Below, piece after piece: positions 2,509 to 48,600 of a DNA stretch of 64,000 nt. A program made the translations under genes and the position numbers. Within the stretch, counting starts at the first letter, position 1, and each line of letters opens with the position of its first letter. The DNA lies in assembly GCA_025457865.1 (NCBI GenBank), contig JALOTP010000001.1:96457-160456 (forward strand), in the 5' to 3' direction. The stretch is from Thermoplasmatota archaeon (GTDB lineage Archaea; Thermoplasmatota; Penumbrarchaeia; Penumbrarchaeales; Penumbrarchaeaceae). Below the pieces are notes generated by a model, which was given only the letters and a program-made list of their open reading frames with translations, did not search any database and was not told the origin of the DNA.

Positions 2509-3372
2509 CTAGGGCTTTCCCTTCTGGCGCTCCTCCTTCTGAGAGCGTCTCTGGACTATCCGGTCCATTATGAGCTTCATGTAAACGGCATCATGTTCGA
2601 GCAGCGGGGACTCGGAGATGACAGTGTAGTTGGTGTCCTCCCGGTCCAGCATCATCTCCGCAAGCGGGTCGAACCTGAGGTCCCCCTTCTTCACCGGTGT
2701 GTTCATTATCTTGTCCCCGTCCGAGTGCTCGACACCGGAGAAGTGGAGATAGTACTCGTCCTCTTTAGTGACAGCATGCACCTTCTCGAACAGCTCCTCG
2801 AACCTCTGCTTGTCTAGGAGCTCCCCCTTGGTCCTTGCATGGATGTTGGGAATGTTCAGAACTGGTATGGTCCTCTGGACCCTTTTTACTATGGATAGGA
2901 CCTCATCGACGGTCCCGAAGACCTTCTGCCGGCCGGATGTCTCGAGCCCGAGCCTCACATCGAGCTTCTCCTTCTTGAACCGGTCCCTTATGGCCCTGAC
3001 CTGTGTTACGGCCAGTTCGAGCGCCTTATTGTGGGAGAGATTATGGTACATGCCAATGTGGGTCACTACCAGGTCGCTCCCGAGCTTCTTTGCTATCTTC
3101 CCCGCCCAGATTATGTTCTCGAAGGACCGCTCCCTGTAGAACTTGTCCCCCAGGAGGTCCATGTAGTACGGGGCATGGATGGTCAGTCTGACATCCAGCT
3201 CCTCTCCGAGCTCCCTGATCAGGTCGAGGTCCTCCTGGACCTCCCTCTGAGGCCGCAGAAGCTGGACCTCCATAGCATCAAGCTGGAGGGCATGGATGTC
3301 CTCTATGCCGTCCTTCAATGTCCTGCCCTTGCAGGACAGTGGTATACCCGCAGGTCCGAACCTTATACCCAT
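2509..3372 (-). CDS. nfo: Endonuclease IV (Nfo)-family AP endonuclease / xylose-isomerase-like TIM barrel
   Basis: Blocks TIHAPYY, VTHIG, LGLETSG, NIPNIHA, YYLHFSG and TVISE align with the Nfo metal-binding motifs. The ORF 2509..3405 probably starts at internal Met 3372 (MGIRFGPAGIP, a typical archaeal Nfo N-terminus). Confidence 0.65.
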   Translation of the reverse strand: MGIRFGPAGIPLSCKGRTLKDGIEDIHALQLDAMEVQLLRPQREVQEDLDLIRELGEELDVRLTIHAPYYMDLLGDKFYRERSFENIIWAGKIAKKLGSDLVVTHIGMYHNLSHNKALELAVTQVRAIRDRFKKEKLDVRLGLETSGRQKVFGTVDEVLSIVKRVQRTIPVLNIPNIHARTKGELLDKQRFEELFEKVHAVTKEDEYYLHFSGVEHSDGDKIMNTPVKKGDLRFDPLAEMMLDREDTNYTVISESPLLEHDAVYMKLIMDRIVQRRSQKEERQKGKP

Positions 3373-3531
3373 CTTGCACCCAACTCCTTTGCTGTGAGAG
3401 GTCATGGACCACCGGCCTCTGGACCGTAGTCCCCAACCTTATTATTTGCACCTTGCTATTATTTATACCTTTCCCGTTTTTAACAGACATCCAAACCATT
3501 TTCTGCCTTATTGCCCGGTCCTCTGGTGGCA

Positions 3532-4413
3532 TCAGAGGGATACCTTACCCTTTTTGAGCAGCATTTCCACCGCCTTGTCCGCTGCATCTTCCAGCTTCTC
3601 TCCGTTATCAAGGGCCTCGTTGACAGCCTTGTTCTGTTCGTCCATCAGAGCCCTTGCGTCCCTTTTGAGCCTGTCCCTCTCTCCCCTAAGCTGCACGACC
3701 TTCTCCCGAAGCTCCAGGGACTTCTTGTGATATGAATCCGCCTGCTGCCTCAGCTCCAGGTACTCCTGGTGCTTCTTGTCCGCCTCGTTCCTCAGATGGT
3801 CCAGGGACGGTGTGACGGAATCGATCTCCTTCTGGAGGTCATCCAGTTTCTCCATGAGCTCCCGGACCTTCTTGTGCTCCTCATCGGAGAGCCTTCTCAG
3901 CTCCTCTATCTCCTCTTCCTTCGAGAGGAGCTCCGTCCTGTGGGTCTGGAACACCTCGCCCTTGCCCCTGAGCTCGTTCATCCTCTTCCTCTTCTCCTCT
4001 ATCTGGGAGACGAGCTCCCTCTCCTTGCCCATGGAGAGGGGCATGGTCTGATAACGGTGTTCGAGCTCGTTTAAGTCCTTTTCCAGGACCACTATGTCCT
4101 CGTAAGGGTCCTTGACGGCACCCTCTTTCTTCCTTTTGAAGCCGAGAAGTGCCCTGGCGCGCTCAGTGTACAGGTCCCTCCTTGCGCGGGCGGCCTTCAT
4201 CTCCTCTATCAGTGCCGACCTCTTGTCCCTGGTTGCCCTTAACTGCTCCAGGATCGCTTTGCGCTTGTTTTGCAGGTCGTCCCTTAGCTCCCTGACGACC
4301 TTGGCCTGATCGTTAAGGCCATCCCTCCTCTCATAGATGGACCTGAGCCGTTTCTCCCCGTCAGAGAGTTCCCTGACCAGTTCTTGGGGCACCTCATCCG
4401 GGTCCATACGCAA
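3532..4413 (-). CDS. Conserved archaeal coiled-coil protein (COG1340-like)
   Basis: 293 aa, almost entirely heptad-like and charged (E/K/R/L-rich). No enzymatic motifs. Confidence 0.55.
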   Translation of the reverse strand: MRMDPDEVPQELVRELSDGEKRLRSIYERRDGLNDQAKVVRELRDDLQNKRKAILEQLRATRDKRSALIEEMKAARARRDLYTERARALLGFKRKKEGAVKDPYEDIVVLEKDLNELEHRYQTMPLSMGKERELVSQIEEKRKRMNELRGKGEVFQTHRTELLSKEEEIEELRRLSDEEHKKVRELMEKLDDLQKEIDSVTPSLDHLRNEADKKHQEYLELRQQADSYHKKSLELREKVVQLRGERDRLKRDARALMDEQNKAVNEALDNGEKLEDAADKAVEMLLKKGKVSL

Positions 4414-4465
4414 TACCTCGAGAAAGGGATTTTTTGGTAATGGGGAACAGATACTTAAAGGACAC

Positions 4466-5242
4466 CTATGGTCGCGCCTTAGAATGGGAAGTGTTCGCTA
4501 TCTTGCCAGCCATTGCCCCGGCAACGAACCCGGCATCTATGTTGACGACTGCCAGTGGGGAGCAGCTCTGGAGCATGGCGAAGAGAGCGGTCTCACCCTT
4601 GCCGTGCAGGCCGTAGCCAGTGGAGACCGGCAGTCCTATCACCGGGACCTTGACCAGACCAGAGACCAGGGTTGGCAGGGCTCCTTCCCTTCCTGCCGAG
4701 ACTATGATGACGTCCGCCCCCCATTCCCTGAGCTGATGAAGGGGTCCCAGCAGCCTGTGGACACCTGCGACACCGACATCATGGAAGGCCATTGTGGCGC
4801 ACCCCATCTCCCTTGCCGTCAGCTCTGCTTCGAGGCTGACCGGTATGTCAGAGGTCCCAGCACTGAGCAGCCCTACCCTCCCACCTGTGGGGTGGAGGAT
4901 GGAACTGGCCGTCCTTGCGGTCAGGAAACCAGCCCTATCATCGTAGGTGTTCGTCAGGTCAGGGAAGCCCTCTTTGAGGGAACATAACAGCTCATCGCAT
5001 GCAGACCGCCCGAGCCTGGAGACTATCGCCCTTTGTGTCCTTCTCAGGAACTCCGAGGAGATCTCGAACAATTGTCCCTGCGTCTTTCCGTCGGCTATGA
5101 TGACCTCGGGTACCCCGGTCCTATATTCTCTGCCAGTGTCTATATTACATTCGAGCTCGCCGTAGAGCCTCCGTTCGAGCTCCTTAAGAGCATCATCGAC
5201 CGATGTCCTTTTCTCGGAGACCGCTCTCAGAAGGTCCTCCAT
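4466..5242 (-). CDS. larB: Nickel-pincer cofactor biosynthesis protein LarB (PurE-like AIR carboxylase family)
   Basis: GLLSAGTSDIPV, VGVAGVHRLLG, IIVSAGREGALP and VVNIDAGFVAGAMA match LarB/PurE-like motifs. The ORF extends to 5368, but the Met at 5242 (MEDLLRAV) gives the expected ~258 aa. Confidence 0.75.
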   Translation of the reverse strand: MEDLLRAVSEKRTSVDDALKELERRLYGELECNIDTGREYRTGVPEVIIADGKTQGQLFEISSEFLRRTQRAIVSRLGRSACDELLCSLKEGFPDLTNTYDDRAGFLTARTASSILHPTGGRVGLLSAGTSDIPVSLEAELTAREMGCATMAFHDVGVAGVHRLLGPLHQLREWGADVIIVSAGREGALPTLVSGLVKVPVIGLPVSTGYGLHGKGETALFAMLQSCSPLAVVNIDAGFVAGAMAGKIANTSHSKARP

Positions 5243-9103: not shown

Positions 9104-10288
9104 ATGGAGATGGCAACTAAGACGATAACCGTGACCCAGGATGCATATGACGCGATGGCCCGGCAGAAGAGGGAGGGTGAGAGCTTCTCCGAGCTCTTCC
9201 TGAGATTGACCGGACGGGAATGCAACATCTCGGATTTCCTTGGACTATGGGAGATGGACGATGAGGACCAGAAGGTCTTTGATCAGATCAGGAGGTCCTG
9301 GTTGAATAATACCATTTATTATAACAATCGTCCACTTAATTACGGGACCTTAAATTCATTGTTATGGGATACAGATGGTGATAATATGTCCGACGGTTGG
9401 GAGATAAAATACGGATTCGATCCGTGCGATAACTCGAGCCCTAACAAGAATAATGATGGGGACCAGGACGGGATCAGTGATTACAATGAATATTGTCTTG
9501 AAGATACACCTGGAGCTTTCGTTGAGAACAATGTGACCATAAAGTACCATAACATGTCAAAATGGGGAGCGCAGCCAGACAGAAAAGATATCTTTGTAGA
9601 AGTTGATTGGATGGTCCGTGAATGGTTCGATGATTATTCATTTACTAAAAAAGAATTGAAATTAAACCAAGAAATGAAGGATAAATTGATATTATTATTT
9701 TTCAAACAAATAGAAAAGAACTATTCTTTCACTCTACATATTGATGATGGTTATATGGGTGGAGGTACTCAACTTGATTATCAACCAAGAATATATATAA
9801 ATAAAAAGAATGGAGGTTTTAATGATTTGCAGGATTTTTATTTAAATAATTTTTATTATATATTGAGACAGGGCGTTTTTCATTATTGTGTTATTGGAAA
9901 TGAAGTTTTTTCAAATGGGGAAAGCGAAGATACCGATTGGGTGCCTGGAGTTTCAACAAAAGGACATTTTATTATTGGAGGTGAGTTTCATACTCAAGAA
10001 AAAATGGCTAATGTATTTTTACATGAATTGGGACATACTTTTGGATTACTAAGAGAGGGGGGCAGCAATTTTACAGGGATTGACAATACTGATACTACAA
10101 GACCATGGAAATGTGAGTTTTGGAAATATTTAGAGTATAAAAGTGTTATGAATTATAATTTTATATACGACTTTTTGTTTAATTATTCTGATGGGTCAAA
10201 TGGAAATGATGATTTTGACGATTGGGACTGGATTAATAATAATCTATCATTTTCTCTTTATTTAAAAGGCCTGGGGGTGTGGGATTGA
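9104..10288 (+). CDS. Chimeric ORF: VapB-family (PF02697-like) antitoxin N-terminus (aa 1-~65, GC-rich) read through into an AT-rich metzincin-like zinc metallopeptidase (copy A)
   Basis: aa 1-66, MEMATKTITVTQDAYDAMARQKREGESFSELFLRL...FLGLWEMDDEDQKVFDQIRRSW, resembles archaeal putative antitoxins. GC content collapses at nt ~9300 inside the ORF. Downstream come a TSP3-like DTDGDNMSDGWE motif, then KWGAQPDRKDIFVEVDWMV, HELGHTFGLL (10022-10036) and an SVMNY Met-turn. The protease part may use its own internal start (e.g. the ATG at 9386). Confidence 0.6.
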   Translation: MEMATKTITVTQDAYDAMARQKREGESFSELFLRLTGRECNISDFLGLWEMDDEDQKVFDQIRRSWLNNTIYYNNRPLNYGTLNSLLWDTDGDNMSDGWEIKYGFDPCDNSSPNKNNDGDQDGISDYNEYCLEDTPGAFVENNVTIKYHNMSKWGAQPDRKDIFVEVDWMVREWFDDYSFTKKELKLNQEMKDKLILLFFKQIEKNYSFTLHIDDGYMGGGTQLDYQPRIYINKKNGGFNDLQDFYLNNFYYILRQGVFHYCVIGNEVFSNGESEDTDWVPGVSTKGHFIIGGEFHTQEKMANVFLHELGHTFGLLREGGSNFTGIDNTDTTRPWKCEFWKYLEYKSVMNYNFIYDFLFNYSDGSNGNDDFDDWDWINNNLSFSLYLKGLGVWD

Positions 10289-10860
10289 AATATCAAAAAA
10301 TTATTTCTTTAATAATAGTATTATTTTTATCTAGTGGGTGTTTTGATTTTTTTTCTGAGGAAGATTCCTATTTCAGGTTTAAATTTGAATTTAAAATTAA
10401 TGTATATTCTAATAATGACACGTATATGATTTATATACCTATACCAAAAAATGGTTCAAATAAGGGTGTTAATCCAATAATTAAGTATTTTATAAAAGAA
10501 GGAGATATTGAAACGAATATTTCGTTGGTAAAAATAAATGATCGTTTTGAATATGCACTTCAGATAGTTGGGAATGGAAATGCTCGTATTTGGTTAGATA
10601 ACAAAATGATATACAGTTTAGAATATTATTTAGGATACATGTGGTTATACTCAGATGCTAAACATTTATTTTTCTATTTTAATTCTTCGATGGAAGGTTG
10701 TGCGATTGATTATTATTTACAACAAGAAATATTTCACGATGATGGAGCCACTCACAAAATTTTTTATCGAACAGATTCAGATCATTCAGATACTGTTTTA
10801 GTTAATGGATGGAATAATGTAATTGTTTATCAATACGAATCACCAGTAGTAATGAGGTAA
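10279..10860 (+). CDS. Predicted lipoprotein (copy A partner)
   Basis: Signal peptide with lipobox (IISLIIVLFLSSGC). AT-rich and Y/N/K-rich. The start overlaps the stop of the upstream protease ORF by a few nt (GTG/TTG start). Confidence 0.55.
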   Translation: MGLKYQKIISLIIVLFLSSGCFDFFSEEDSYFRFKFEFKINVYSNNDTYMIYIPIPKNGSNKGVNPIIKYFIKEGDIETNISLVKINDRFEYALQIVGNGNARIWLDNKMIYSLEYYLGYMWLYSDAKHLFFYFNSSMEGCAIDYYLQQEIFHDDGATHKIFYRTDSDHSDTVLVNGWNNVIVYQYESPVVMR

Positions 10861-10864
10861 AATT

Positions 10865-11677
10865 ATGATTAAGACATGTTACAAAAATAATATTATGTGC
10901 CGAGTTCATGACATGTGCAGGTGGGGAGCACAGCCTGATAGGCAGGATATTTTCGTCGAGGTTGACTGGATGGTAGAGGAAAAGTTCCAATACAATTGGG
11001 AGATTGACAGATATGAAACTGAAATATCATATAAAATGTCAGATAAAGTAAAAGAGAAGGTAATAATAGCTTTTTATAAAGCATGCAAATACGGGAATCA
11101 TATCACATTGCACATAGATGACGGATGCATGGGTGGGGGAGGAGATAAAATTGATTATATCTATGAAATTTATGACACATGGAAAAACGATGATGGTGAC
11201 ATGTATGATTTTAAAGGTCATGATGCAAATAATAATTTCAAATTGGATAATAGTGAAGAGGTAACTAATCCATTAACAGGAAAACCATATTTTAGTAGTT
11301 CAAGATCAAAGATATTTCACTATTGTTTGATGGCTTATTATCTTAAAGGCTCTCATAAAACCCTTGGTTCATCAGATGGACCAAATGTTAAAGCCGGGTA
11401 TGATGTAGGGGATCTAGGAGGAGATGATATAACAATCTTTATGGGGGCTCTTGGAAGTGCAAACGATGCTGAAGTGGCTGATGTTTTTATGCATGAGTTA
11501 GGACATAATTTAGGATTGATTGATTATTATTCAAATCCTGATAAAGCAAAGACTATGTATGGTTGGGGACATAATAAATATTTGAATTATAATAATAATT
11601 TAAACGATGGATATGCGGGATGGCAAGAAATGGACTTAACTATATTTACTGATTCGACAAAAGACTTATGGGATTGA
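10865..11677 (+). CDS. Metzincin-like zinc metallopeptidase (copy B; lacks the TSP3-like N-region)
   Basis: Paralogous to copy A (RWGAQPDRQDIFVEVDWMV; TLHIDDGCMGGGG). HELGHNLGLID (11492-11524) fits HExxHxxGxxD, and TMYGW is a Met-turn-like motif. No signal peptide is visible. Confidence 0.6.
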   Translation: MIKTCYKNNIMCRVHDMCRWGAQPDRQDIFVEVDWMVEEKFQYNWEIDRYETEISYKMSDKVKEKVIIAFYKACKYGNHITLHIDDGCMGGGGDKIDYIYEIYDTWKNDDGDMYDFKGHDANNNFKLDNSEEVTNPLTGKPYFSSSRSKIFHYCLMAYYLKGSHKTLGSSDGPNVKAGYDVGDLGGDDITIFMGALGSANDAEVADVFMHELGHNLGLIDYYSNPDKAKTMYGWGHNKYLNYNNNLNDGYAGWQEMDLTIFTDSTKDLWD

Positions 11678-11689
11678 TGGAGGAATACT

Positions 11690-12190
11690 ATGAAAAATAT
11701 TATAATCTATATATTATCAATAACTTTCATATTAATTATTGGATGCCTTGACAATAATGAACCCAGTCAAGAAATGTATAATGGAAATATTGATTTATCT
11801 ATTCATATTTCAAATAATGATCTTAACCAAATTTTAGTAAATATCTTATTAGAAAATATTGATTCTCACAAAATAACGATTCAACCATTATACTTATGGG
11901 GAAATCTTCAAATTAATATTTCAGATGCAAATGGATTGAAGGTTTTTAGTGCGGATAAACCTAAGTTATTTTCTTTGACAAATGATGATTTGATAACGAT
12001 AAAAGAGAATCAAAATATCACGTTGACAATTAATTTATATGAGCATTTCAATTTTAATCGTAATTTCACACAACCATATTCAATATATGCACAATATAAA
12101 ACTTCAGATATTGGTGGAGGAAATGAAAAGCTTAATTCATGGAAAGGTGAACTAATTTCGAATATAATCGAATTCAAGATAACTTCATAA
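11690..12190 (+). CDS. Predicted lipoprotein (copy B partner)
   Basis: MKNIIIYILSITFILIIGC gives a signal peptide plus lipobox. A GGAGGAATACTATG RBS-like sequence precedes the start. 166 aa, N/I-rich. Confidence 0.55.
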   Translation: MKNIIIYILSITFILIIGCLDNNEPSQEMYNGNIDLSIHISNNDLNQILVNILLENIDSHKITIQPLYLWGNLQINISDANGLKVFSADKPKLFSLTNDDLITIKENQNITLTINLYEHFNFNRNFTQPYSIYAQYKTSDIGGGNEKLNSWKGELISNIIEFKITS

Positions 12191-12346
12191 AGTCGGAGTC
12201 ACAGATTACAGCCAAATTAATTGGCAATATACTGGACACGTCTTAGGCATAATTTGTGATGTTTAAAAATCAAGTAGCATAATTGATGTGCAAGAAATAT
12301 CATCAATCAGGAACGATGAATTGTTCCAGGTACGAGTGAATCTCAT

Positions 12347-12628
12347 CTACATCAACAGGAAGCTTAGAACAATCAACAATGATGATCTCATATCCTGGCA
12401 TCCTATACTGCTCGATCTTCCGGTTCCGGTACTTCTTGGAAACATGGAACTCAATTTCATACAAGGTCCTTGTTGTCTTGTCGCAAAGATCGACATATCC
12501 GTTTGGGACCTCCATTCGGATGATACATCATGTTTCATATCTCTTAGAATCCAGAACAGGATCGCTTTGGCAACGAAATGTTTGTAGGTTTCGTTCGATA
12601 ACTTCGTAAGATGGTTCGGCCCACTCAC
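12347..12628 (-). CDS. Hypothetical small protein (93 aa)
   Basis: GTG start preceded by a strong AGGAGG 7 nt upstream, in intermediate-GC sequence between the island and the AcnX gene. Overlapping ORFs (12303..12515 minus, 12288..12587 plus) cannot be excluded. No homology recognised. Confidence 0.3.
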   Translation of the reverse strand: MSGPNHLTKLSNETYKHFVAKAILFWILRDMKHDVSSEWRSQTDMSIFATRQQGPCMKLSSMFPRSTGTGRSSSIGCQDMRSSLLIVLSFLLM

Positions 12629-14023: not shown

Positions 14024-14061
14024 AAATTATTTATATGAGGTAATGTAATGGCGTATTACAT
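14024..14061 (+). promoter_or_regulatory. TATA-like box (TTATTTATAT) plus inverted repeat ATGTAAT-GGCGT-ATTACAT upstream of the RHH gene
   Basis: AT-rich box at 14024-14033 and a 7-bp-arm palindrome at 14043-14061, about 40 nt before the ATG at 14100. Confidence 0.4.
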
Positions 14062-14099
14062 CCTTAATACAATGGTCCGGGATGCACGAGTGAGCAAGA

Positions 14100-14483
14100 A
14101 TGGCAGGAAAACCTCAGACCATATCCGCACGCTTTTCAAGCGAGCAGGTCGAGCTCCTCAACAGGCTCCAGGAGGAGCTGGCCATCTCAAAGACAGATGT
14201 ATTACAGATGGCCCTGGAAGCCCTCTCAAGGGGCAGGTCCACCGTTTCGGGCGGGACGGTAGCGGTCCCTGTCTCGGCGGACACCATGAGGAGGGCCATG
14301 AGGCTCCATCACGATTACGGCCTCAAGCATTCGCTCGAGGCGCTCCTGTCGGAGGCCCTTGACATAGGTGTCAGGGAGCTCAGGAGGACGATCGAGTCCG
14401 ACAGGAAGGGTGACCTCGACCTTGCAAGGTCCGACATGGACGCCGGGCTTGTCGAGGTCCAAAGAGGTGCAGTGAAGGGTTGA
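14100..14483 (+). CDS. Ribbon-helix-helix (CopG/Arc/ParG-like) DNA-binding protein
   Basis: The N-terminus TISARFSSEQVELLNRLQEELAISKTDVLQMALEAL has the beta-strand and two-helix pattern of RHH proteins, followed by a C-terminal extension. Confidence 0.5.
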   Translation: MAGKPQTISARFSSEQVELLNRLQEELAISKTDVLQMALEALSRGRSTVSGGTVAVPVSADTMRRAMRLHHDYGLKHSLEALLSEALDIGVRELRRTIESDRKGDLDLARSDMDAGLVEVQRGAVKG

Positions 14484-14601
14484 AGGTCCTAGGGCGGTAG
14501 GGATGCCCGCCCTCAGACGGTAACGGACGACCGCAGAGATGCAGGAACAGGAAAGCGGTCCTTGACCTTTCCGGGCGAACAAGAAAAAAGGGGGTATTAG
14601 A

Positions 14602-14790
14602 ATGGATGGGAGAGACCTTACCGAGAAAGCAAGGAGCGACCTGCTCTACCTTGAGCAGCTGAACGTGTATGCGGAGAACACAAGGAACACGCCCGAGTAC
14701 ATCAGGGCGATGGCGATGTACACCCAGGCCCTCCACGTCATAGACGAGAGGTACGGGAACCTGGAGCATATGATATACCGGTCCAAGTGA
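14602..14790 (+). CDS. Small helical hypothetical protein (62 aa)
   Basis: Lies between the RHH gene and the FtsZ-like gene on the same strand. Its stop is 1 nt before the RBS-like GTGAGGA of the next gene. Confidence 0.4.
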   Translation: MDGRDLTEKARSDLLYLEQLNVYAENTRNTPEYIRAMAMYTQALHVIDERYGNLEHMIYRSK

Positions 14791-14793
14791 GGA

Positions 14794-15852
14794 ATGCTTT
14801 TCATGAGGCCACTCGTACGCTCCCGCGGCAGGGAGGGCAGACTGCTTGTCGTGGGGGTAGGCAGCGGTTCGAGCAGGACCATGGAACTGGTCCAAACGGG
14901 CTCAGGAGGGCCCGTGGACACTCTGTTCGTGACCACCGACGAGTCGGACCTCCAGAGGACTTGTGCCGATGTCAAGTTCCTGATAGGGCGCAGGCTCTGC
15001 GGCGGAAAGGGCGCCATGGGCATAACCGAACTTGGTGAGAGGTCCGCAGAGGACGCAAGACGGGACCTTGAGCCGTACATGACCGGATATCCGTTGATCA
15101 TCATCGTCTCGACTCTAGGCAAGGGGACCGGCAGCGGCGCAGCACCAGTGCTGGCATCCATTGGAGAGGGTCTCGGGGCGTTGGTCCTGAACTTCGCCAT
15201 CATACCATCGGCGAACCTCGAGCCCATGCCAAGGACGGTGGCCAACCATTCAAGGAACAAGATGCTCAAACGGGGCTTCAACCTCGTCACCATAGACCAG
15301 GACAGGTTCATGGAGATGAACGGGAGCCAGCCCTTCGCCCAGACGATGGCCTCACTTGACGCATTGATATCATGGATAGTCATCTCCCTTGGCAATGTCG
15401 TCTTCGGCCAGTCAAAGAGATGCCTGACGGTATCGGACCTCCGTAGTGTGTTCCGGGAGGGCAACGAAGGCACCATCTTCATAGGCGGCAGCTTCACCGG
15501 CGACCCGAAGCACGCCGCGACCGAGTTCGTCACATGCGGACTTATGAAGAGGGACCCCAGGACCGGAAAGGGCTTCATGCTCAATCTCGTCACGCCCATG
15601 GGCGTCAAGGATGCCCAGACCAAGCCATTCATCGAAGCGGTCATGGATGAGGTTGACGGCAGGAACAAGACGGTCTTCGTCGGGAGCCTTGAGGACCCCC
15701 ACCGCAAGGAGATAGTGGACCTCATAGGCATAATAACGGGCATGGAGGACGGAAGCGTTAGGCTCTCGGACATAACGCAGAAGGCCAAAGCGGACAAGGG
15801 CCAGGTCCCCCAGGCCGTCCATGACCGATGGGACATACCTATGATCAGATGA
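14794..15852 (+). CDS. Divergent FtsZ/tubulin-superfamily GTPase (FtsZ-like/CetZ-like paralogue)
   Basis: T1-like [21 protein letters not shown] (cf. IAINTDAQAL), [18 protein letters not shown] (cf. GLGAGANPEIG..AEE), the tubulin signature variant [12 protein letters not shown] (15118-15147), and a T7-like [10 protein letters not shown]. 352 aa including a C-terminal domain. Confidence 0.8.
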
Positions 15853-23463: not shown

Positions 23464-25688
23464 TCCTCATGGAGGATAGATCTGAGAGCTGAATAGATTT
23501 CCCCATCATAAGTGTCTCTCCTTGCTTTCAAGGCCTTCTTCAGTTCGGTCCTCCTTGAATCCCTTGGCAGTTTCACACCTTCGAAGGGGGCTGTCTCGAT
23601 CTCGGAATAAACTATCCTTTCTCTCAAAGTATCGAACTGGACGTCCATCGGTCCGTTCCGGGGCAATCCGTCAGGCGACAGGCGTTCGGACCATACCTGG
23701 GTAACCGATCCCCCTTCGAAGGTATGCGGGGTCATGCGGGGGGTAGGAACATCGATAAGGTCATCCACATGAGATGGCGCCTCTTCTTTCCTCTTCCTTT
23801 CCCTCTTATAAATGAAAAGGGAGATGATGCATAGGAACAATACGAGACCTGATGCGATCAGAACGAAGGGAAGGGAGCTCTTTTCATCGACACGATCCTT
23901 CCCGGCCACATCCAATACCACTATGATCTCGCATGTTCCATTGTAACTGTCGATCGCGCGCAGTCTGAGCGTATAGGTCCCTTTGTCCAGGGTAAGGTTC
24001 AGAAACTCTCCCTCCCCCACCAATCCGATACCGTCTATGTACCATTCGTACCTTACAGAGTCGCCATAGGTTAGGTCCAGGTCAAGCGATGAGGCCGAAA
24101 GGGTGAACGTTTCACCGCCCTTCACTTCCTTTTCGGGGGTCGATATCGATGCGTTGGTTGGCGGTCTGTTCGTTTCCGCGGTCCAAGAAAAGTCATCTGT
24201 CTTGTTATCTTCGGAAGGATCATCGGTGGTATTCCCATCATCGGTAGTACCATTATCTGGCGGTGTACTGTTGTCTATCGGTGTTGGAATGTAGTTCATG
24301 GTCACGTTCCAGACAGTTTCAAATCCGCTCTCATATACATGAGTGACAACAAAATAGCTCAGTCCGCTCCTATTGGAGTAATTGAAAATGAGGAGATCAG
24401 TATCTATAAGGAATGTCTCCTCATGACGGTCAAGCTTCCCTACCGTATAGTCAGAGGCAACCTTGTGGCTAGAAATACCAGCGGAATGGATCTTTTCATC
24501 GACGCCCTCATCATACGAGGAATAATAGAAAAGACATTCTCGGTATTCCTCGAGGAAATCGAACTCTAGAAGCCCAACAACGGGCACTTCCCGTATAGGT
24601 ATTGTGACGTTTGGATCGACCTTTGCAATGAATGGATAGCTACCACTTTCGTAGTCAATATCGCTGATGTTGATCCTATTGTCCTCACTTTCAGCATCGA
24701 ACCTACCGTTCCCCTGGACTATGTTCTTATAAAGGTTTGGGAAATGGCCGTTAAGGCTAAAGATGCCGCTACCAAGGTTGTTCCTTATAGAATTGTAGAA
24801 CAGGTTGCTGTTTGCCGTGGTAACGACTCCATTCTTTTTATTTCCCTCTATGAAATTATTGAAGATGAGGTCACCAGAGCTATCGACGACATAGCACAAT
24901 CCAAAGCCAAAATTATCGCAAAGCTGATTGCCAGCGATGAGGCTTTGTCTAGTATTGTTGAGGTAGAGCCCTCCGTTCGAGTTGTTATGACAGCTGTTGT
25001 TCCTGATTATTAGGTTGAACCCATGATGGATACGGATACCATATCCATAGGAGTCCACTTCATTTCCTACCAACCGGGTGCAATTGTTGCCCATACCCTC
25101 CAGGAAGATACCGGAACTACCCTGTAATCCATGTCCACGGATCTTATTGAACATGATATCGTTCCAATGGTTATCTTTGGCCAACCTTATCCCGCACAAT
25201 CGGTTACCGTTCATCTCATTATTTTGTATCAGGTTATTGTCCGACCGGTTGAGGAAAACATGACAATTGCTACTGTTCTCAAACAAATTCTCCCGAATGA
25301 CCACATTCTCGGCATTAAAGAGCGATGCTCCGAACGCTGCATAATTGAACCTACAGTTCTGGACAGTGATATATTTCGTGGTATTGGCGATGAAAATCCC
25401 GAAAAGGGGATTATGGTAAGGGCCCCCTCCATCGAAAAAGAATCCTTCTATGATGTAAGGATCGCTCTCTGTCCCGGTCCCCGAGACAACACCGTTGCCG
25501 GCCGTGAAGTCGGAATCGCCCTCTATGAGTATCGGCTCATGCAGCTCGTACTGTCCCCTTGTTCCATCGATGATCGGGCCGGTCGTTCCATCGGACGTAT
25601 CGACCGACAAGAGCACCGGCAGGACCAGAAGCAGGCACAGCAGGGTCGTTGCTTTTCCACAGGACATGGGTTTACGCTCCTTTTCCAT
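23460..25688 (-). CDS. Cell-surface right-handed parallel beta-helix (NosD/pectate-lyase-like) repeat protein with PKD-like domain, TM anchor and cytoplasmic tail
   Basis: Signal peptide, repeated N-x-x-x-N/G beta-helix rungs (NNSCHNNSNGGLYLNNT...) and a T/D/N-rich linker. A TM helix (LPFVLIASGLVLFLCIISLFIY) lies about 100 aa from the C-terminus. The gene is ~42% GC against ~60% around it. Confidence 0.65.
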   Translation of the reverse strand: MEKERKPMSCGKATTLLCLLLVLPVLLSVDTSDGTTGPIIDGTRGQYELHEPILIEGDSDFTAGNGVVSGTGTESDPYIIEGFFFDGGGPYHNPLFGIFIANTTKYITVQNCRFNYAAFGASLFNAENVVIRENLFENSSNCHVFLNRSDNNLIQNNEMNGNRLCGIRLAKDNHWNDIMFNKIRGHGLQGSSGIFLEGMGNNCTRLVGNEVDSYGYGIRIHHGFNLIIRNNSCHNNSNGGLYLNNTRQSLIAGNQLCDNFGFGLCYVVDSSGDLIFNNFIEGNKKNGVVTTANSNLFYNSIRNNLGSGIFSLNGHFPNLYKNIVQGNGRFDAESEDNRINISDIDYESGSYPFIAKVDPNVTIPIREVPVVGLLEFDFLEEYRECLFYYSSYDEGVDEKIHSAGISSHKVASDYTVGKLDRHEETFLIDTDLLIFNYSNRSGLSYFVVTHVYESGFETVWNVTMNYIPTPIDNSTPPDNGTTDDGNTTDDPSEDNKTDDFSWTAETNRPPTNASISTPEKEVKGGETFTLSASSLDLDLTYGDSVRYEWYIDGIGLVGEGEFLNLTLDKGTYTLRLRAIDSYNGTCEIIVVLDVAGKDRVDEKSSLPFVLIASGLVLFLCIISLFIYKRERKRKEEAPSHVDDLIDVPTPRMTPHTFEGGSVTQVWSERLSPDGLPRNGPMDVQFDTLRERIVYSEIETAPFEGVKLPRDSRRTELKKALKARRDTYDGEIYSALRSILHEE

Positions 25689-25875
25689 CGCTATGGCGTT
25701 GAGGCCGTTACCGGCTTATGAATGCATTATGAGCTTGGAAGAACAAGCTGGCCAAGAAGGGGTATTTCCCCTTTCTGTTCTTATCGCGTGATCATCCCCA
25801 TATCACTATCCCTCCCGACGGGCCCTTCAGAAACCCTTTTTAGCAGCCATGGGCTTGACCCGACGGCGAAACAAG

Positions 25876-26742
25876 ATGAAGCTCCTCTGCGGCTCTTCCA
25901 ACCCGGCCCTCTCAGCCAAGCTCGCAAATGCTCTGGGATGCCCTATCGTTCCTGCTGAGATCAAGCGGTTTCCAGACGGCGAGCTCTACACAAGGCTGCT
26001 GGAGCCTGTCAGGGGGGAGGACCTGGTCATCGTCCAATCCACATATCCGGACCATAACGCTATGGAGATGCTCATACTCTCATCCCTGGCAAGGGACCAA
26101 GGGGCCAAGAGTGTCATGGGGGTCATACCCTACTTCGGTTACGCCCGGCAGGACCGCGTGTTCAAAGAGGGCGAGTCCTTCACCGCAAGGACCATGCTTC
26201 GGCATCTGGAGCTCGCATTGGACCACATCATCTGTGTCAACCTCCACAAGGAGGCGACCCTGAGGGAGCTCTCGAGGCCCGGTTCGGGCACTAATGTATC
26301 GGTCATGGGGGAGATAGGCTCCTTCCTCAAGACCAAGGGGATAGACATGGTCCTATCCCCCGACAAGGGGGCCATAGCCTATGCAAGGGAGGCTGCCGTG
26401 ACGGCGGACTGCCCCTACGATAATCTCGAGAAGACCAGGCTCGACGGCATGAGCGTGGTCATGGCGCCCAAGGACCTTGACGTCAGAGGTAAGAGGGTCG
26501 CCATCGTGGATGATATTATAGCAACGGGCGGGACCATAGTGAAGGCCCAGGAGATGCTCAGGGCCCAGGGTGCCTCCCGTGTTGTGGCATGCTGCGCTCA
26601 CGGCCTCTTCACATCAGGAGGTCTGGAAAAGCTCAGGCCGGTCCTTGACGGCGTCCTCTCGAGCGATACCATAGAGGGAGCGACCAACGGCTATTCCGCC
26701 GCCGGTCCGATAGCCAGAGCGGTGAAGGATGTGGTCGTTTGA
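25876..26742 (+). CDS. prs: Ribose-phosphate pyrophosphokinase (PRPP synthetase)
   Basis: MKLLCGSSNPALSAKLANALG...FPDGE and the PRPP-binding VAIVDDIIATGGT. Start taken at Met 25876. Confidence 0.9.
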   Translation: MKLLCGSSNPALSAKLANALGCPIVPAEIKRFPDGELYTRLLEPVRGEDLVIVQSTYPDHNAMEMLILSSLARDQGAKSVMGVIPYFGYARQDRVFKEGESFTARTMLRHLELALDHIICVNLHKEATLRELSRPGSGTNVSVMGEIGSFLKTKGIDMVLSPDKGAIAYAREAAVTADCPYDNLEKTRLDGMSVVMAPKDLDVRGKRVAIVDDIIATGGTIVKAQEMLRAQGASRVVACCAHGLFTSGGLEKLRPVLDGVLSSDTIEGATNGYSAAGPIARAVKDVVV

Positions 26743-45657: not shown

Positions 45658-48600
45658 ATGTTCAAGAGAGATCTACTGGTGGCAATAGCTATTCTTACTT
45701 TTTTGAGCGTACCATCTGTAACGTGTTACCCCCATTCATCTGGACCTGTAGGAACCCCTTGGACCATGGACGGTGACCTGGAGATGGACATGAACATCTC
45801 GGAAGCGTCTATGGCATCGTTCATTGGCGAAGGCGCTTGGGATTCTTCGGGTTTTTCCGTGTCAAGGGCAGGGGATGTGAACGGCGATGGGTTGGATGAT
45901 ATCATCATAGGTGCCCAACAGAATGGGGAGGGTGGCTCTGGTGCGGGTCAGACATACCTCTTCTTCGGAAGGGCGAGCGGTTGGGAGATGGATACGAACC
46001 TCAGCATGGCCGATGCCTCGTTCATTGGGGAGGATGATGGTGATGGTTCCGGCCATTGTGTGGTGGATGCCGGTGATGTGAACGATGATGGTTATGATGA
46101 TATCCTCATAGGTGCGAACCAGGATGAGGACGGCGGGAACGGGGCAGGTCAGACATACCTCGTTCTCGGTAGGGCGTCAGGATGGACAATGGACACCGAC
46201 CTGAGCTTGGCCGATGCCTCGTTCATAGGGGAGGATGATGGTGACAATTCCGGTCATACGGTGGATGGGGCGGGGGATGTGAACGGTGACGGGTTCGATG
46301 ACATACTCATAGGGGCCTATGGGGACGAAGATGGAGGCGGTGGAAACGCAGGTCAGACCTATTTGATATTGGGTAAAGCCTCGGGCTGGGCCATGGATAC
46401 TGACCTCAGCCAGTCCGATGCATCGTTCTGGGGTGAGGAAGGTGGGGATTGGTCGGCCTATTCGGTTGCGGGCGCCGGAGACGTGAACGGGGATGGTCTC
46501 GATGACATCCTTGCCGGAGCCTCCGACAATGATGCAGGAGGGAATGCCGCTGGCCAAGCCTATCTGATACTGGGAAAGGCCTCAGGTTGGGCGATGGATA
46601 CAGACCTATCAGCTTCCAGTGCATCCTTCTGGGGCGAGGAAAGCGTTGACTATTCAGGTATCACGGTATCAGGACCGGGAGATGTGAACGGTGATGGCTA
46701 TGACGATATCTTCATCGGGGGTTCGAACAATGATGAGGGGGGGGACAATTTCGGCCAATATTATCTGGTCCTGGGGAAGGCCTCTGGGTGGGCGATGGAC
46801 ACCGACCTGAGCCTCTCGGACGCTTCGTTCCGAGGAGAGTACAGTGGGAGTTGGACGGGGAGGCAGGTTTCCGGGGCAGGAGATGTGAACGGTGATGGGT
46901 TCTATGATATAATGGTAGCGGATTCCTATGCAAATGAGGGTAATTCCGGAGCAGGTCAGACCTATCTGATATATGGGAAGGCCTCAGGATGGTCGATGGA
47001 TCAAGACCTGAACGAGTCCGACGTCTCCTTCATAGGGGAGGACAACGGGGACCAATCTGGGTATTCCGCTCATGGTGCCGGAGACGTCAATGGGGATGGC
47101 AACGACGACATCCTTGTCGGGGCTCCCGGAGATGAGGAAGGCGGCCCGCAATCAGGTCAGACCTACCTAATCTCCATCGAAGGTTTCTCCGAACCATTGG
47201 CGGTCTATGACGTCACGGTCAGGAATGGAATGGGGGAATTGGTCCAGGCCGCCGATATAGGAGAATCAGTCATCATAGAGATTAAAGGTCTGGACAGGAA
47301 CGAATCACATATGGACAAGGCTAGGGTCAACGTTTCCTTCAGCTCCGGAAAACCCGCACAGATCACCGTTGGCCTGATAGAGACCGGTCTGGACACAGGA
47401 CTGTACCGCGGCATCTACAGGGTGAATGTGAACGCTGAATATTTCCAGAGTATCCATTTTTCGGCATATATAGCCCCATCTGAATACTACAATGTGAAGG
47501 TGGATTATCCCTATAGGCCCGATAATGTGGTATCACTGGGTGTCTATTCGAGCCTGACCAGTTCGACCTTGTTAGATAAGTTGGACCTGGGCCAGACAGT
47601 CTATATCAAATGCTCTGGAGAGGATTCGAACAAGTTGACCATAGATAAAGCGTTCGTTAACCTGACCTCGGACAAGAACACGACCTACCATTCCATGGTC
47701 GTCATGATGGAAACGGGGGCATCCACAGGAGTGTTCACCTCATCGTTCACCGTCCCTAGTACGATGGGTTATTTCGAGAACATAACAATGTCATCGGCAG
47801 AGACACCCTCTGTCACTGCGATGTTCATGGTCCATACGCCTGTCCAGCTAAGAGCTACAGGTCCGTTCCGAAAAGCCCAGGAAGATTTGGAGTACAGGGT
47901 GGGTTTCTACAATTTCGGTTATAGTACGGTGACCTGGACCCTGACCACTGATGCATATTGGCTGGAATGGGACGAGGTGGGACATGTGCTCGATGGAACA
48001 CCGAGGAACATCGACGTTGGGGCTGACATCTGGAAGGTCATGGTCCGAATATCGGACGATCAAAGCCGCAGTCATGAGCTGTTGTACAACATCACTGTGA
48101 AGAATACGGACCCGTCGATACTCACAGAGCCTATGACCGAATGCATAGAGTACGATCCGTACCACCTTGACCTGGATTCCAGCGATGATGAGGGCGGTGA
48201 GACCACCTGGTATCTCAACACTGATGCAGAGTTCCTGAGCATTGAGAAGGATACAGGTATCTTGAAAGGAAACCCGATAGGTGTGGATATCGGGGAATAT
48301 CTAGTCAATGTCCAGGTAAGGGACGGGAAAGGAGGGACCGGTAATCTGATCTATGACCTGACGGTGGTCGGGAGGAACGATGGACCCCAGATCACAACCA
48401 CCGACATCAAGCAGGTCGAACAGGACACACCCTTCCGAAGGGATTACGAGGTCTTCGACCCTGATGAGGGGGATTCCCATCACTGGACGCTTAGGACCGA
48501 TGCGGATTGGTTGAGCATGGAGAACGATACTGGAGTTTTGTTCGGGACACCAAATGGTTATGACGTTGGAGACTGCTTCATTAATATCACTGTCACTGAC

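Follow-up and report, generated by a model that had tools for sequence, protein, structure and literature searches.

A highly derived FtsZ-family gene and its ribbon-helix-helix neighbour form a conserved chromosomal cassette in Thermoplasmatota, a probable variant of the archaeal regulator-plus-FtsZ layout

Does a ribbon-helix-helix (RHH) protein gene that lies upstream of a divergent tubulin/FtsZ-type GTPase gene in an archaeal genome belong to a DNA-partition module or to a regulated FtsZ operon? We examined this question for a three-gene cassette in a 64,000-nucleotide stretch of contig JALOTP010000001.1 (hereafter the window) from a Thermoplasmatota archaeon of the family Penumbrarchaeaceae, for which an earlier note had proposed partition logic of the ParR/ParM or TubR/TubZ kind. 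The cassette is chromosomal, is very probably not a DNA-partition machine of a new kind and is probably a variant of the known archaeal regulator-plus-FtsZ layout. Its three open reading frames, located as the earlier note had placed them, lie on the same strand downstream of a TATA box:

14100 to 14483, + strand: gene A, 127-aa RHH protein, putatively DNA-binding, with a profile match to CopG
14602 to 14790, + strand: gene B, 62-aa helical-hairpin protein, helices at residues 8-26 and 32-52
14794 to 15852, + strand: gene C, divergent FtsZ-family GTPase, 352 aa from ATG 14794

Their description as a tight operon fits genes B and C, which are 3 nt apart, but not genes A and B, which are separated by 118 nt. 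The A-B-C order is intact in all 21 related species-level Thermoplasmatota genomes that have sufficient flanking sequence, a set that includes class EX4484-6 (Ca. Penumbrarchaeia) and in which the identity of C falls to 46%; the linkage of C with an RHH gene and with the gene of a small helical protein is stable, in a unit that recurs in other genomes. The flanks are syntenic and of a housekeeping character (AcnX, NUDIX, nitroreductase, amidohydrolase, enolase, PRPP synthetase and ABCE1). No relatives of the cassette were found in the viral contigs, plasmids and phages searched, the plasmids and phages yielding canonical FtsZ only, at ~24% identity. Mean column identity is 79% for B, 67% for C and 61% for A, making gene B the most conserved of the three.

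The assignment of C to the tubulin/FtsZ fold is borne out by a match to Pfam Tubulin/FtsZ PF00091 (58.8 bits against a cutoff of 33). HMMER aligns residues 14-329 of C with residues 37-351 of M. jannaschii FtsZ, spanning the FtsZ C-terminal domain, and a PDB profile search aligns C across both domains to solved FtsZ structures with 78-126 bits, the two-domain fold of canonical FtsZ (M. jannaschii FtsZ1, 1fsz/1w5e; bacterial FtsZ) being aligned end to end at 126 bits. That C is non-canonical, as had been suspected, is evident from its score against the TIGR00065 ftsZ equivalog (111.6 bits, below the cutoff of 295.2) and from the altered loops described below. Identity to canonical FtsZ is 22-29%, and PF12327 (FtsZ_C) is matched neither by C of the window nor in the Pfam lists of 27 close relatives. 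C is not nearer to CetZ than to FtsZ (30.9 bits for 4b45 and 18.9 bits for 4b46, against 126 bits for FtsZ). The PDB profile search with C gave no TubZ or PhuZ at E≤1 and no TubZ or tubulin at E≤0.4, and Tubulin_2 PF13809 (FtsZl1/FtsZl2; Makarova & Koonin, 2010) was not matched, PF00091 being the only family recovered for C at E≤1.

Bacterial and archaeal FtsZs score alike against C (120-142 bits), with no subgroup measurably closer. A nearest relationship to other Thermoplasmatota FtsZs of the GKGTGSG type was considered and rejected, since the full-length L029 gave 97 bits and the truncated 259-aa ORF of L056 gave 89 bits, two scores that are only roughly comparable because of the truncation. 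In a neighbour-joining tree of FtsZs, for which the comparison set included no certified FtsZ2, the C family occupies its own long branch. On these alignments we regard C as a true FtsZ-type protein that is highly derived and non-canonical; a role in 'division' and an 'FtsZ2-derived' origin are suggested by synteny logic. Translation of C probably starts at ATG 14803 rather than 14794, because the GAGG Shine-Dalgarno sequence overlaps the stop codon of gene B, and the orthologue P0001 has its start at the MRP that corresponds to 14803. Three segments of C are needed for comparison with canonical FtsZ:

15118 to 15138, + strand: T4 'tubulin signature' GKGTGSG, residues 109-115
15418 to 15450, + strand: true T7 loop region, residues 209-219, aligned to GLINVDFADVKAV
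15823 to 15849, + strand: conserved C-terminal peptide DRWDIPMIR, following a variable linker

Like canonical FtsZ, C combines T1 and T4 loops rich in G with an Asp in T7 that corresponds to the catalytic one, and its flexible linker leads to a short conserved C-terminal peptide, but the motifs themselves are changed. The T1 and T4 sequences are as originally described and are conserved across the family: T1, GVGSGSS, follows the pattern GxGSG..R rather than GGGGxN, and T4 has the family consensus GKGT[AG]SG, in contrast to GGGTG[ST]G in all of the 90-odd canonical FtsZ sequences retrieved. The sequence GKGTGSG is also found outside the C family, in the FtsZ of Cuniculiplasmataceae and Methanoprimaticola. 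T5 reads PSxxxE[SP] instead of PFxxEG, and T6 has Gln for Asn. The segment TIDQDRF (residues 166-172), previously taken to be a shortened T7 loop, pairs with the FtsZ motif 'V[IV]PN[DE]KL' in both HMMER and MAFFT alignments and is the T6 region. In the real T7 loop, [SGC]-x-[TS]-x-S-D stands in place of NxDxxD; the Asn and the first Asp are missing, only the last Asp (D215) is retained, and S214-D215-L216 is invariant in the C family. By established FtsZ numbering we take D215 to correspond to D212 of E. coli FtsZ; its homologue is the residue mutated in H. volcanii FtsZ1 D250A and FtsZ2 D231A. The C-terminal peptide has the consensus DRW[DE]IPM[IV]R, in which W346, P349 and M350 never vary and R345 and I348 hardly ever do, and it resembles the Pro-containing tail of bacterial FtsZ (e.g. 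LEIPAFIRRK). The archaeal FtsZ tail consensus, which is centred on 'GID' and binds SepF (PMC8178401), is not matched.

Gene A consists of the strand TISAR, helices at residues 14-27 and 31-46, a strand-helix-helix-like second half (about residues 55-100) and an acidic C-terminal tail at the end. A profile of 20 A orthologues matches CopG (2cpg, E=0.0016, residues 7-45), in agreement with the RHH N-terminus first proposed, and by this N-terminal beta-alpha-alpha unit we assign A to the RHH superfamily. Pfam gave no match to A above threshold, individual RHH matches all falling below it. The AF2 model of A, built from only 3 sequences, is of moderate quality (pLDDT 67); Foldseek superposed it on CopG with a TMt of 0.88 and an rmsd of 1.7 over 45 residues at a non-significant E-value, and also matched single-chain Arc and relaxosome chains, none significantly. 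The second half weakly matches the centromere-binding RHH ParB of pCXC100 (3no7, E=0.1), and an internal-repeat test of the N-terminal against the C-terminal half (hhalign) was in register but not significant (E=0.045). A shares its N-terminal strand T-I-S-A-R, with alternating polar residues, and two following helices with CopG/Arc/Mnt-type repressors and single-chain tandem RHH proteins (TraY), but it differs from them in its length of 127 aa, its second, degenerate strand-helix-helix unit and its acidic tail, and a TraY-type tandem arrangement is at most tentative, given the non-significant internal-repeat test and the moderate model. The region upstream of gene A and its coding sequence contain the following elements:

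14030 to 14037, + strand: TATA box TTTATATG, preceded by a purine-rich BRE-like stretch (putative promoter)
14043 to 14061, no strand: inverted repeat ATGTAAT-GGCGT-ATTACAT, the right arm of which overlaps O1
14053 to 14059, no strand: operator box O1, GTATTAC (consensus GTAWTAC, a 7-bp palindrome)
14064 to 14070, no strand: operator box O2, TTAATAC, 11 bp (one helical turn) after O1
14199 to 14205, no strand: intragenic operator box O3, GTATTAC, within gene A codons D-V-L-Q, 146 bp from O1

The TATA-like box reported earlier is present, and an A/T-rich octamer lies at a fixed distance 5' of the operator boxes in 22 of 22 loci, the remaining spacer being variable. O1 begins 23 bp past the TATA start, where transcription would be expected to begin, and in 21 of the 22 loci the O1/O2 pair keeps a fixed position relative to the TATA box and an invariant start-to-start spacing of 11 bp. 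A scan for box-N4-box pairs, with at most 1 mismatch per box, covered the window and L001-L026 (27 sequences, 271 kb); 24 of these sequences have the pair at the promoter of gene A, a single time in each locus. Exceptions are L018, which is without the upstream region, and L019, which has one promoter box; the sole other matches in the 271 kb are extra intragenic pairs inside gene A, in L019 and in L001/L002/L011 (one contig). The inverted repeat that had been put forward as the operator does exist, but it was seen only in the window and in the 96%-identical L006, and is broken in L007. We consider it a lineage-specific elaboration, the conserved element and putative protein-binding operator at the promoter being the paired GTAWTAC boxes. 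No iteron or repeat arrays were found at the locus, which has 2+1 short boxes only.

In 19 of 20 loci the third box occurs within gene A, at +96 to +99, and it is maintained by rare codons. Its Val codon is GTA in 20 of 20 cases (12.8% of Val codons elsewhere), its Leu codon is TTA in seven of eight (1.5% elsewhere) and its Ile codon is ATA in 12 of 12 (39.5% elsewhere), and synonymous sites flanking the box vary. CopG/Arc/Mnt-type and tandem RHH proteins likewise bind, in a cooperative manner, to short palindromic sub-sites that lie one helical turn apart, and they autoregulate at their own promoters; these features would extend to A if it binds the boxes described here, and the box within its own coding sequence sets A apart from them. 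Between genes A and B there are two further elements:

14488 to 14576, + strand: conserved intercistronic RNA element, covariance model
14590 to 14594, + strand: putative Shine-Dalgarno-like GGGGG for gene B

The RNA element comprises hairpin 1 (stem 14491-14497/14507-14513), with the invariant loop motif GGGAUGC, hairpin 2 (GACCGC at 14529-14534 with GCGGUC at 14555-14560) and, 3' of hairpin 2, the motif CCUUUCCGGGC at 14566-14576. Its covariance model matches 18 of 18 main-clade loci (24-105 bits); the three loci that diverge most lack the element, and Rfam 15 covariance models gave no match to 14484-14601 even at E≤10. Hairpin 1, which was found only after anchoring on the loop motif and covariance-model alignment, has compensatory changes in seven of eight pairs with 96.8% of cells paired, counts that lean toward the model because of the way the alignment was made; the observed covariation was reached by 0 of 500 shuffles. 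RNAalifold on a plain MAFFT alignment recovered the invariant hairpin 2 only, and single-sequence folding of the window sequence gave a z-score of +0.75. Since hairpin 2 is invariant it has no covariation support, and both this hairpin and the motif 3' of it could equally be DNA-level signals. Other readings of the region were tried and rejected, namely sequestration of CCUUUCC in an SD/anti-SD hairpin (limited to about 4 bp, not conserved), a C/D-box or K-turn reading of GGGAUGC (box D and the second GA are absent) and a small ORF (frames not conserved).

A GGGGG(A/T) run is found 5-12 nt 5' of the gene B start codon in nearly all loci. Differences at the three codon positions of gene B (0.15/0.10/0.43) indicate purifying selection on a real protein, and the AF2 model (pLDDT 83) shows a helical hairpin that lacks a strand. 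The first 7 residues of B vary and do not resemble a strand, and the two helices, joined by an N-T-P-E loop, have 19 and 21 residues, which is longer than in RHH proteins. A PDB search with B gave no sequence or fold match, Foldseek returning generic helical hairpins at E>2, and among 1.84 billion representatives the B family amounts to 4 clusters, the other matches being weak, repeat-wise ones to TPR proteins. No match to RHH_1 or any other RHH family was obtained for B in Pfam or the PDB, even at permissive thresholds; B is not an RHH protein and therefore is not CdrS. Six Tyr residues are invariant and conservation spans the whole surface, which suggests a protein-protein or protein-RNA interface.

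The closest published parallel concerns ftsZ2. In the cited sections of the literature, cdrS-ftsZ2 is co-transcribed and the RHH protein CdrL binds that promoter (Darnell et al., 2020, PMC7439475), and RHH_1 genes are the usual ftsZ2 neighbours (Santana-Molina et al., 2023, PMC9871819); RHH proteins beside ftsZ2 are transcription regulators in the published cases. Because an RHH gene beside ftsZ2 had thus already been described, the partition reading fails, as does the claim that a chromosomal RHH partner for an archaeal tubulin-superfamily gene is new. As in cdrS-ftsZ2 and cdrL-cdrS-ftsZ2 of Euryarchaeota, a chromosomal RHH gene lies upstream of an FtsZ-family gene on the same strand, here in all 21 species. 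Further likenesses to cdrL-cdrS-ftsZ2 are a ~60-aa gene directly 5' of ftsZ and presumably co-transcribed with it, a longer RHH gene further upstream, and an RHH protein that acts on the promoter of its own locus, which those sections report for CdrL and which we would expect of A. The components differ, however: B is not an RHH protein, unlike CdrS; A has a helical second-RHH-like C-terminal half where CdrL has a double zinc ribbon; and C falls far below the FtsZ equivalog score, with altered T4 and T7 loops and a Pro-containing rather than a GID tail. This locus also has a structured RNA between its first two genes and an operator box within gene A, neither of which is mentioned for cdrS-ftsZ2 in the sections cited (PMC7439475, PMC9871819).

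The reading we consider probable is that of a vertically inherited Thermoplasmatota operon, comprising a derived FtsZ (C), an obligate partner (B) and an RHH autoregulator (A), as a lineage variant of the cdrS/cdrL-ftsZ2 locus. The N-terminal ribbon of A would bind the two GTAWTAC palindromes that span the transcription start some 25 bp past the TATA box, and also the third box, about 140-185 bp downstream in its own coding sequence, so that the three boxes would serve to repress or fine-tune the operon through occlusion of its promoter and possibly through looping or a roadblock. A, B and C would be expressed from one transcript, in which the structured RNA between A and B may set B-C output apart from A by processing, by stability or as a protein-binding site. 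Translation of B and C would be coupled and the two proteins would work as a complex, in which B most likely binds C, plausibly at the invariant tail DRWDIPMIR. C would bind GTP and polymerise head to tail like FtsZ, with slow hydrolysis predicted from its weakened T7 loop, and would work in cell division or membrane constriction.

A partition module would instead make A a ParR/ParG/TubR-like adaptor, GTAWTAC a minimal centromere, C a TubZ-like cytomotive filament protein that transports the chromosome and B a modulator of the TubY kind. The gene logic fits, in that a DNA-binding protein and a small modulator accompany an NTPase of the tubulin superfamily, and TubZRC and ParMRC (type II-III) systems also pair an adaptor gene with that of a cytomotive NTPase ending in a C-terminal tail, which in TubZ contacts the TubR-DNA complex; the weakly ParB-like second half of A and the three dispersed boxes could be read in the same sense. 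TubR is a winged HTH protein, whereas the adaptor here would be an RHH protein placed on the promoter. We consider a partition module very improbable, since the 2+1 boxes sit on the transcription start and form no iteron or centromere repeat array, the C profile finds FtsZ and neither TubZ nor PhuZ in the PDB, the neighbourhood is one of syntenic housekeeping genes with no relatives on viral contigs, plasmids or phages, and the RHH-ftsZ2 pairing is known, from the sections cited, to be regulatory. The view of B as a second regulator in the cdrS position, either a degenerate CdrS that has lost its beta-strand or an MciZ/SulA-like antagonist or chaperone of C polymerisation, is prompted by its cdrS-like place and size directly 5' of the ftsZ gene, by the longer RHH gene upstream that recalls cdrL, and by an N-T-P-E loop between its two helices that resembles an RHH helix-2 N-cap. 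This too seems quite unlikely, given the lack of any RHH match at permissive thresholds, the variable N-terminus, the long helices and a whole-surface conservation with invariant Tyr residues that points to an interface.

C could also be a third, non-division FtsZ paralogue beside FtsZ1 and FtsZ2, with a CetZ-like role in shape, envelope or organelle-like remodelling and with B as its assembly factor. Its separate long branch, altered T1, T4, T5, T6 and T7 loops and non-archaeal tail speak for such a paralogue, as do the orphan partner B, found nowhere else, and the presence of both FtsZ1 and FtsZ2 in most archaea according to the cited part of PMC9871819; the RHH linkage, a hallmark there of ftsZ2 and not of CetZ, argues against it, and we hold it to be unlikely. 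No canonical FtsZ was seen within the 64-kb window, which is uninformative for the whole genome, and the Ca. Penumbrarchaeia paper and its supplements yielded no FtsZ or SepF inventory. A self-contained, previously undescribed system, with a third archaeal FtsZ family whose bacterial-like tail is read by B (found nowhere else among about 15 billion proteins), and two levels of expression control by a three-box RHH operator with one box in the regulator's codons and by a new class of cis-regulatory RNA, is possible but doubtful; it would imply a division or remodelling machine with a membrane-anchoring or assembly logic unlike the SepF-FtsZ1/FtsZ2 scheme.

Archaeal FtsZ-based division is known mainly from haloarchaea, through FtsZ1, FtsZ2, SepF, CdrS and Cdp proteins. 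On the favoured reading of a vertically inherited operon, an uncultured, class-level sediment lineage of Thermoplasmatota would have kept the ancestral 'RHH regulator + ftsZ' wiring with every component remodelled: the FtsZ nucleotide signature is changed, the synergy loop appears crippled and the tail is of bacterial type, and an ultra-conserved 62-aa protein coupled to C, a covarying RNA and a rare-codon operator box accompany it. The locus leaves the general picture of archaeal division unchanged, the RHH-FtsZ pairing itself not being new, but it bears on how far the catalytic and anchoring motifs of FtsZ can drift. It also offers testable handles, as its operator is defined and it supplies candidates for a tail-binding partner and for an archaeal cis-regulatory RNA, and an enrichment culture of the class Ca. 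Penumbrarchaeia exists (PMC12220078).

Methanocella FtsZ is in an FtsZ1 context, with secE-nusG downstream, and the FtsZ gene on a Natronorubrum replicon follows a D-aminoacyl-tRNA deacylase gene, the same preceding gene as in Methanocella, for which reason we read it as FtsZ1. The FtsZ gene of a Halanaeroarchaeum plasmid lies next to genes for an integrase and a RelE/ParE toxin, none of its annotated neighbours being an RHH gene, and the Njordarchaeial FtsZ has no RHH neighbour. In keeping with the favoured reading, at the Methanomassiliicoccales locus L056 a 120-aa two-repeat RHH gene lies directly upstream of a GKGTGSG-type FtsZ gene.

Genes A (a ribbon-helix-helix, RHH, protein), B (a 62-aa helical hairpin) and C (a divergent FtsZ-family GTPase) are arranged as follows.

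Layout of the cassette and its neighbours
14100-14483, same strand as B and C: gene A, ORF of 127 aa
14602-14790, same strand as A and C: gene B, ORF of 62 aa
14794-15852, same strand as A and B: gene C, ORF of 352 aa
Upstream of A, opposite strand: aconitase X gene
Downstream, convergent to C: genes for NUDIX, nitroreductase and imidazolonepropionase-like amidohydrolase proteins

The gap between A and B is 118 nt and that between B and C 3 nt, with the GAGG Shine-Dalgarno sequence of C overlapping the stop codon of B. Because of this overlap, the second ATG (14803) is the likelier start of C; an orthologue that is 95% identical to C (P0001) begins at the equivalent position. The 3' end of C overlaps that of the convergent NUDIX gene by 8 nt (15845-15852), and T-rich runs that are candidate terminators of the operon lie within the NUDIX coding sequence. 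Farther neighbours encode ABCE1, enolase, PRPP synthetase and FolE2, and the context of the cassette is chromosomal and housekeeping. Next to the aconitase X gene, on its upstream side, lies a ~3.2-kb island (~9400-12600) of 26-39% G+C, compared with 53-61% around it, which was probably acquired horizontally. Its ORFs include one for a 394-aa protein whose N-terminus resembles a VapB antitoxin, and several that lack a Pfam match, one of these with a lipoprotein-like signal.

The Tubulin/FtsZ GTPase domain is the sole Pfam report for C (58.8 bits), and its score against the NCBIfam ftsZ equivalog model (111.6 bits) falls below the cutoff of 295. Database searches returned ~27 close relatives at 44-95% identity, labelled either 'hypothetical' or, by JGI automatic annotation, 'cell division protein FtsZ'. 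Several have no organism assigned; each of the others comes from a Thermoplasmatota MAG. Beyond this group identity falls sharply to canonical FtsZs at 22-29%. When compared with solved structures, a profile of the C family matched FtsZs end to end (78-126 bits, with M. jannaschii FtsZ1 at the top), CetZ at just 31 and 19 bits and OdinTubulin at E ~0.5; TubZ and PhuZ gave no match. In a neighbour-joining tree with ~90 bacterial and archaeal FtsZs, none of them a certified FtsZ2, the C family forms a separate long branch, and C is no nearer to two other Thermoplasmatota FtsZs that have a Lys-containing T4 loop. By these comparisons, C is an FtsZ-type protein far from canonical.

The alignments bear out the unusual T1 and T4 loops described in the earlier note and place the segment that it had assigned to T7 in the T6 region.

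Loop motifs of the C family and of canonical FtsZ
T1: C family, G[VI]G[SG]G..R; canonical, GGGGxN
T4: C family, GKGT[AG]SG; canonical, GGGTG[ST]G
T5: C family, PSxxxE[SP]; canonical, PFxxEG
T6 region: C family, IDQDRF; canonical, [IV]PN[DE]KL
T7: C family, the last Asp alone kept (D215, invariant); canonical, GLINVDFADVKAV

The position matching D215 is the one altered in the H. volcanii mutants FtsZ1 D250A and FtsZ2 D231A. Every member of the family ends, after a variable linker, in DRW[DE]IPM[IV]R, which is like the Pro-containing tail of bacterial FtsZs (LEIPAFIRRK in CPR FtsZs) and unlike the archaeal 'GID' SepF-binding consensus (PMC8178401). The DIPxxIR pattern of the tail hints that C may have been transferred horizontally from a bacterial or CPR source. 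From these motifs we infer that C would bind GTP, polymerise and hydrolyse GTP at a reduced rate, its tail serving to dock a partner.

When each GTDB species was represented by a single genome, the C family was located in 21 species-level MAGs, all Thermoplasmatota, including 'ex4484_6' and an enrichment MAG (CBDDUX01) of class EX4484-6, now named Ca. Penumbrarchaeia (PMC12220078). No relative of C was found on viral contigs, and plasmids and phages yielded canonical FtsZ alone, with no C-family member. As to whether the cassette occurs elsewhere as a unit, a question raised in the earlier note, A and B lie upstream of C at all loci whose upstream sequence is long enough to show them. The NUDIX-nitroreductase-amidohydrolase flank is likewise conserved, and the three genes are kept together even at loci where the upstream neighbour has changed. 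Two clearly different copies of the cassette were observed in a single MAG, Zod_Metabat.266 (JAFGJI010000273.1 and JAFGJI010000249.1); either the cassette is genuinely duplicated there or the bin mixes two related populations.

A profile of A built from 20 orthologues matches CopG over residues 7-45 (E=0.0016), and residues T7, S9 and R11, within the predicted ribbon, are invariant. The second half of the protein (~49-106) weakly resembles ParB of pCXC100, an RHH protein that binds a centromere (E=0.1). Single-chain Arc, relaxosome chains and CopG come up as matches to a low-confidence model of A, and an internal repeat test was in register, although not significant. Taken together, these make it possible that A is a two-repeat, single-chain RHH protein.

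Phylogenetic footprinting of the A promoter identified a TATA box followed by two 7-bp palindromic GTAWTAC boxes, 23-31 bp from the TATA start (14053-14059 and 14064-14070 in the window), which keep an exact 11-bp spacing at 21 of the 22 loci while the surrounding spacer varies. Across the 271 kb examined, the box-N4-box arrangement occurs once per locus, at the A promoter, in addition to two intragenic near-matches. The 7+5+7 palindrome that had been reported as the operator (ATGTAAT-GGCGT-ATTACAT) overlaps box 1, is confined to the window and its nearest relative, and is not the conserved operator. A third exact box lies within A in 19 of 20 loci (14199-14205 in the window), at +96 to +99 of A and at the helix-2 cap, where it covers codons for D-V-[I/L]-[Q/H]; the alternation of Ile and Leu falls on the W position of GTAWTAC. 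Codons at this site are GTA (20/20), TTA (7/8) and ATA (12/12), whereas elsewhere in these genes GTA makes up 12.8% of Val, TTA 1.5% of Leu and ATA 39.5% of Ile codons. This usage, together with variation at adjacent synonymous sites, indicates that the third box is under selection as DNA sequence. The layout of the boxes is that of a putative operator through which an RHH protein regulates its own gene, with two boxes at the predicted transcription start (~14059-14061, at box 1) and an auxiliary site farther downstream.

The spacer between A and B contains a further conserved feature.

14488-14576, A-B spacer: structured element comprising a hairpin with the invariant loop GGGAUGC (hairpin 1), a hairpin GACCGC...GCGGUC (hairpin 2) and, ahead of the B Shine-Dalgarno sequence, CCUUUCCGGGC

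Four loci were used to build a covariance model, which matches all 18 main-clade loci (24-105 bits); the three loci that diverge most lack the element. Compensatory changes occur in seven of the eight pairs of hairpin 1 and 96.8% of cells are paired, counts that are favoured by an alignment fitted to the covariance model; none of 500 shuffles and no slid register came near the observed signal, and independent single-sequence folds also give this stem. Hairpin 2 never varies and may thus equally act at the DNA level. The element as a whole has no match in Rfam and may represent a new archaeal cis-regulatory element, and the most economical reading is that it controls the output of B and C intercistronically. 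The motif GGGAU(G) recurs in the 5' leader of A (~14074-14082), in the loop of hairpin 1 (14500-14506) and in the ribosome-binding region of B (14590-14596), with equivalents in other loci; it looks a poor complement to the anti-Shine-Dalgarno sequence and may act as a shared site for protein binding or standby.

B is the most conserved of the three genes, with a mean column identity of 79% and 25 residues that never vary, including six Tyr, and its differences by codon position (0.15, 0.10 and 0.43) are those of a real, strongly constrained protein. An AlphaFold model gives a helical hairpin (pLDDT 83) that has no significant fold match, and no sequence match was found in Pfam, NCBIfam or the PDB. 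A HMMER profile searched against 1.84 billion representatives retrieved four clusters, all from its own family, along with TPR proteins that matched weakly and repeat by repeat. B is translationally coupled to C and extremely conserved, and on these grounds we propose it as a putative stoichiometric partner of C, possibly one that binds the invariant C tail.

An RHH gene adjoining ftsZ2 is already established in archaea. In haloarchaea, CdrL, a longer RHH protein encoded upstream, binds the cdrS-ftsZ2 promoter (PMC7439475). Within Thermoplasmatota, a contig of Candidatus Methanoprimaticola hominis (positions 3329-3367 and 3425-4585) has a GKGTGSG-type FtsZ gene immediately preceded by a gene for a 120-aa, two-repeat RHH protein (RHH_8, E=4e-4), and the promoter of this RHH gene carries inverted GTCTTAC ... 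GTAAGAC boxes around the TATA box. Their resemblance to the GTAWTAC boxes hints that the regulator-operator pair may predate the A-B-C family. Given these precedents, the gene logic of an RHH protein with an FtsZ-type protein, which had been deemed new, is therefore known and regulatory. B occupies the cdrS position yet failed the RHH test.

The earlier note likened the cassette, with its RHH protein and cytomotive NTPase, to partition or filament-positioning modules. Its observation is largely real, apart from the one motif and the operator; the partition interpretation itself we consider very improbable. A centromere reading of the GTAWTAC boxes has the wrong anatomy, as two of them lie at the predicted transcription start and no iteron array was found at the cassette locus. 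The cassette is probably a form of the RHH-regulated ftsZ operon peculiar to this lineage, encoding a derived FtsZ filament system and a small protein dedicated to it as partner; C may stand in for FtsZ2 or be an additional paralogue. The new features are how far the FtsZ has diverged, an orphan outside the RHH family where cdrS would be, an operator with three boxes, and the RNA element.

Two further observations were made in passing. The 124-kb plasmid pHSR2-01 of Halanaeroarchaeum sulfurireducens carries an annotated 459-aa FtsZ (25339-26718), a paralogue unrelated to the C family, whose neighbours encode an integrase and a RelE/ParE toxin. Elsewhere in the window, two adjacent same-strand ORFs (45658-49929 and 50067-54353) encode proteins of 1423 and 1428 aa.
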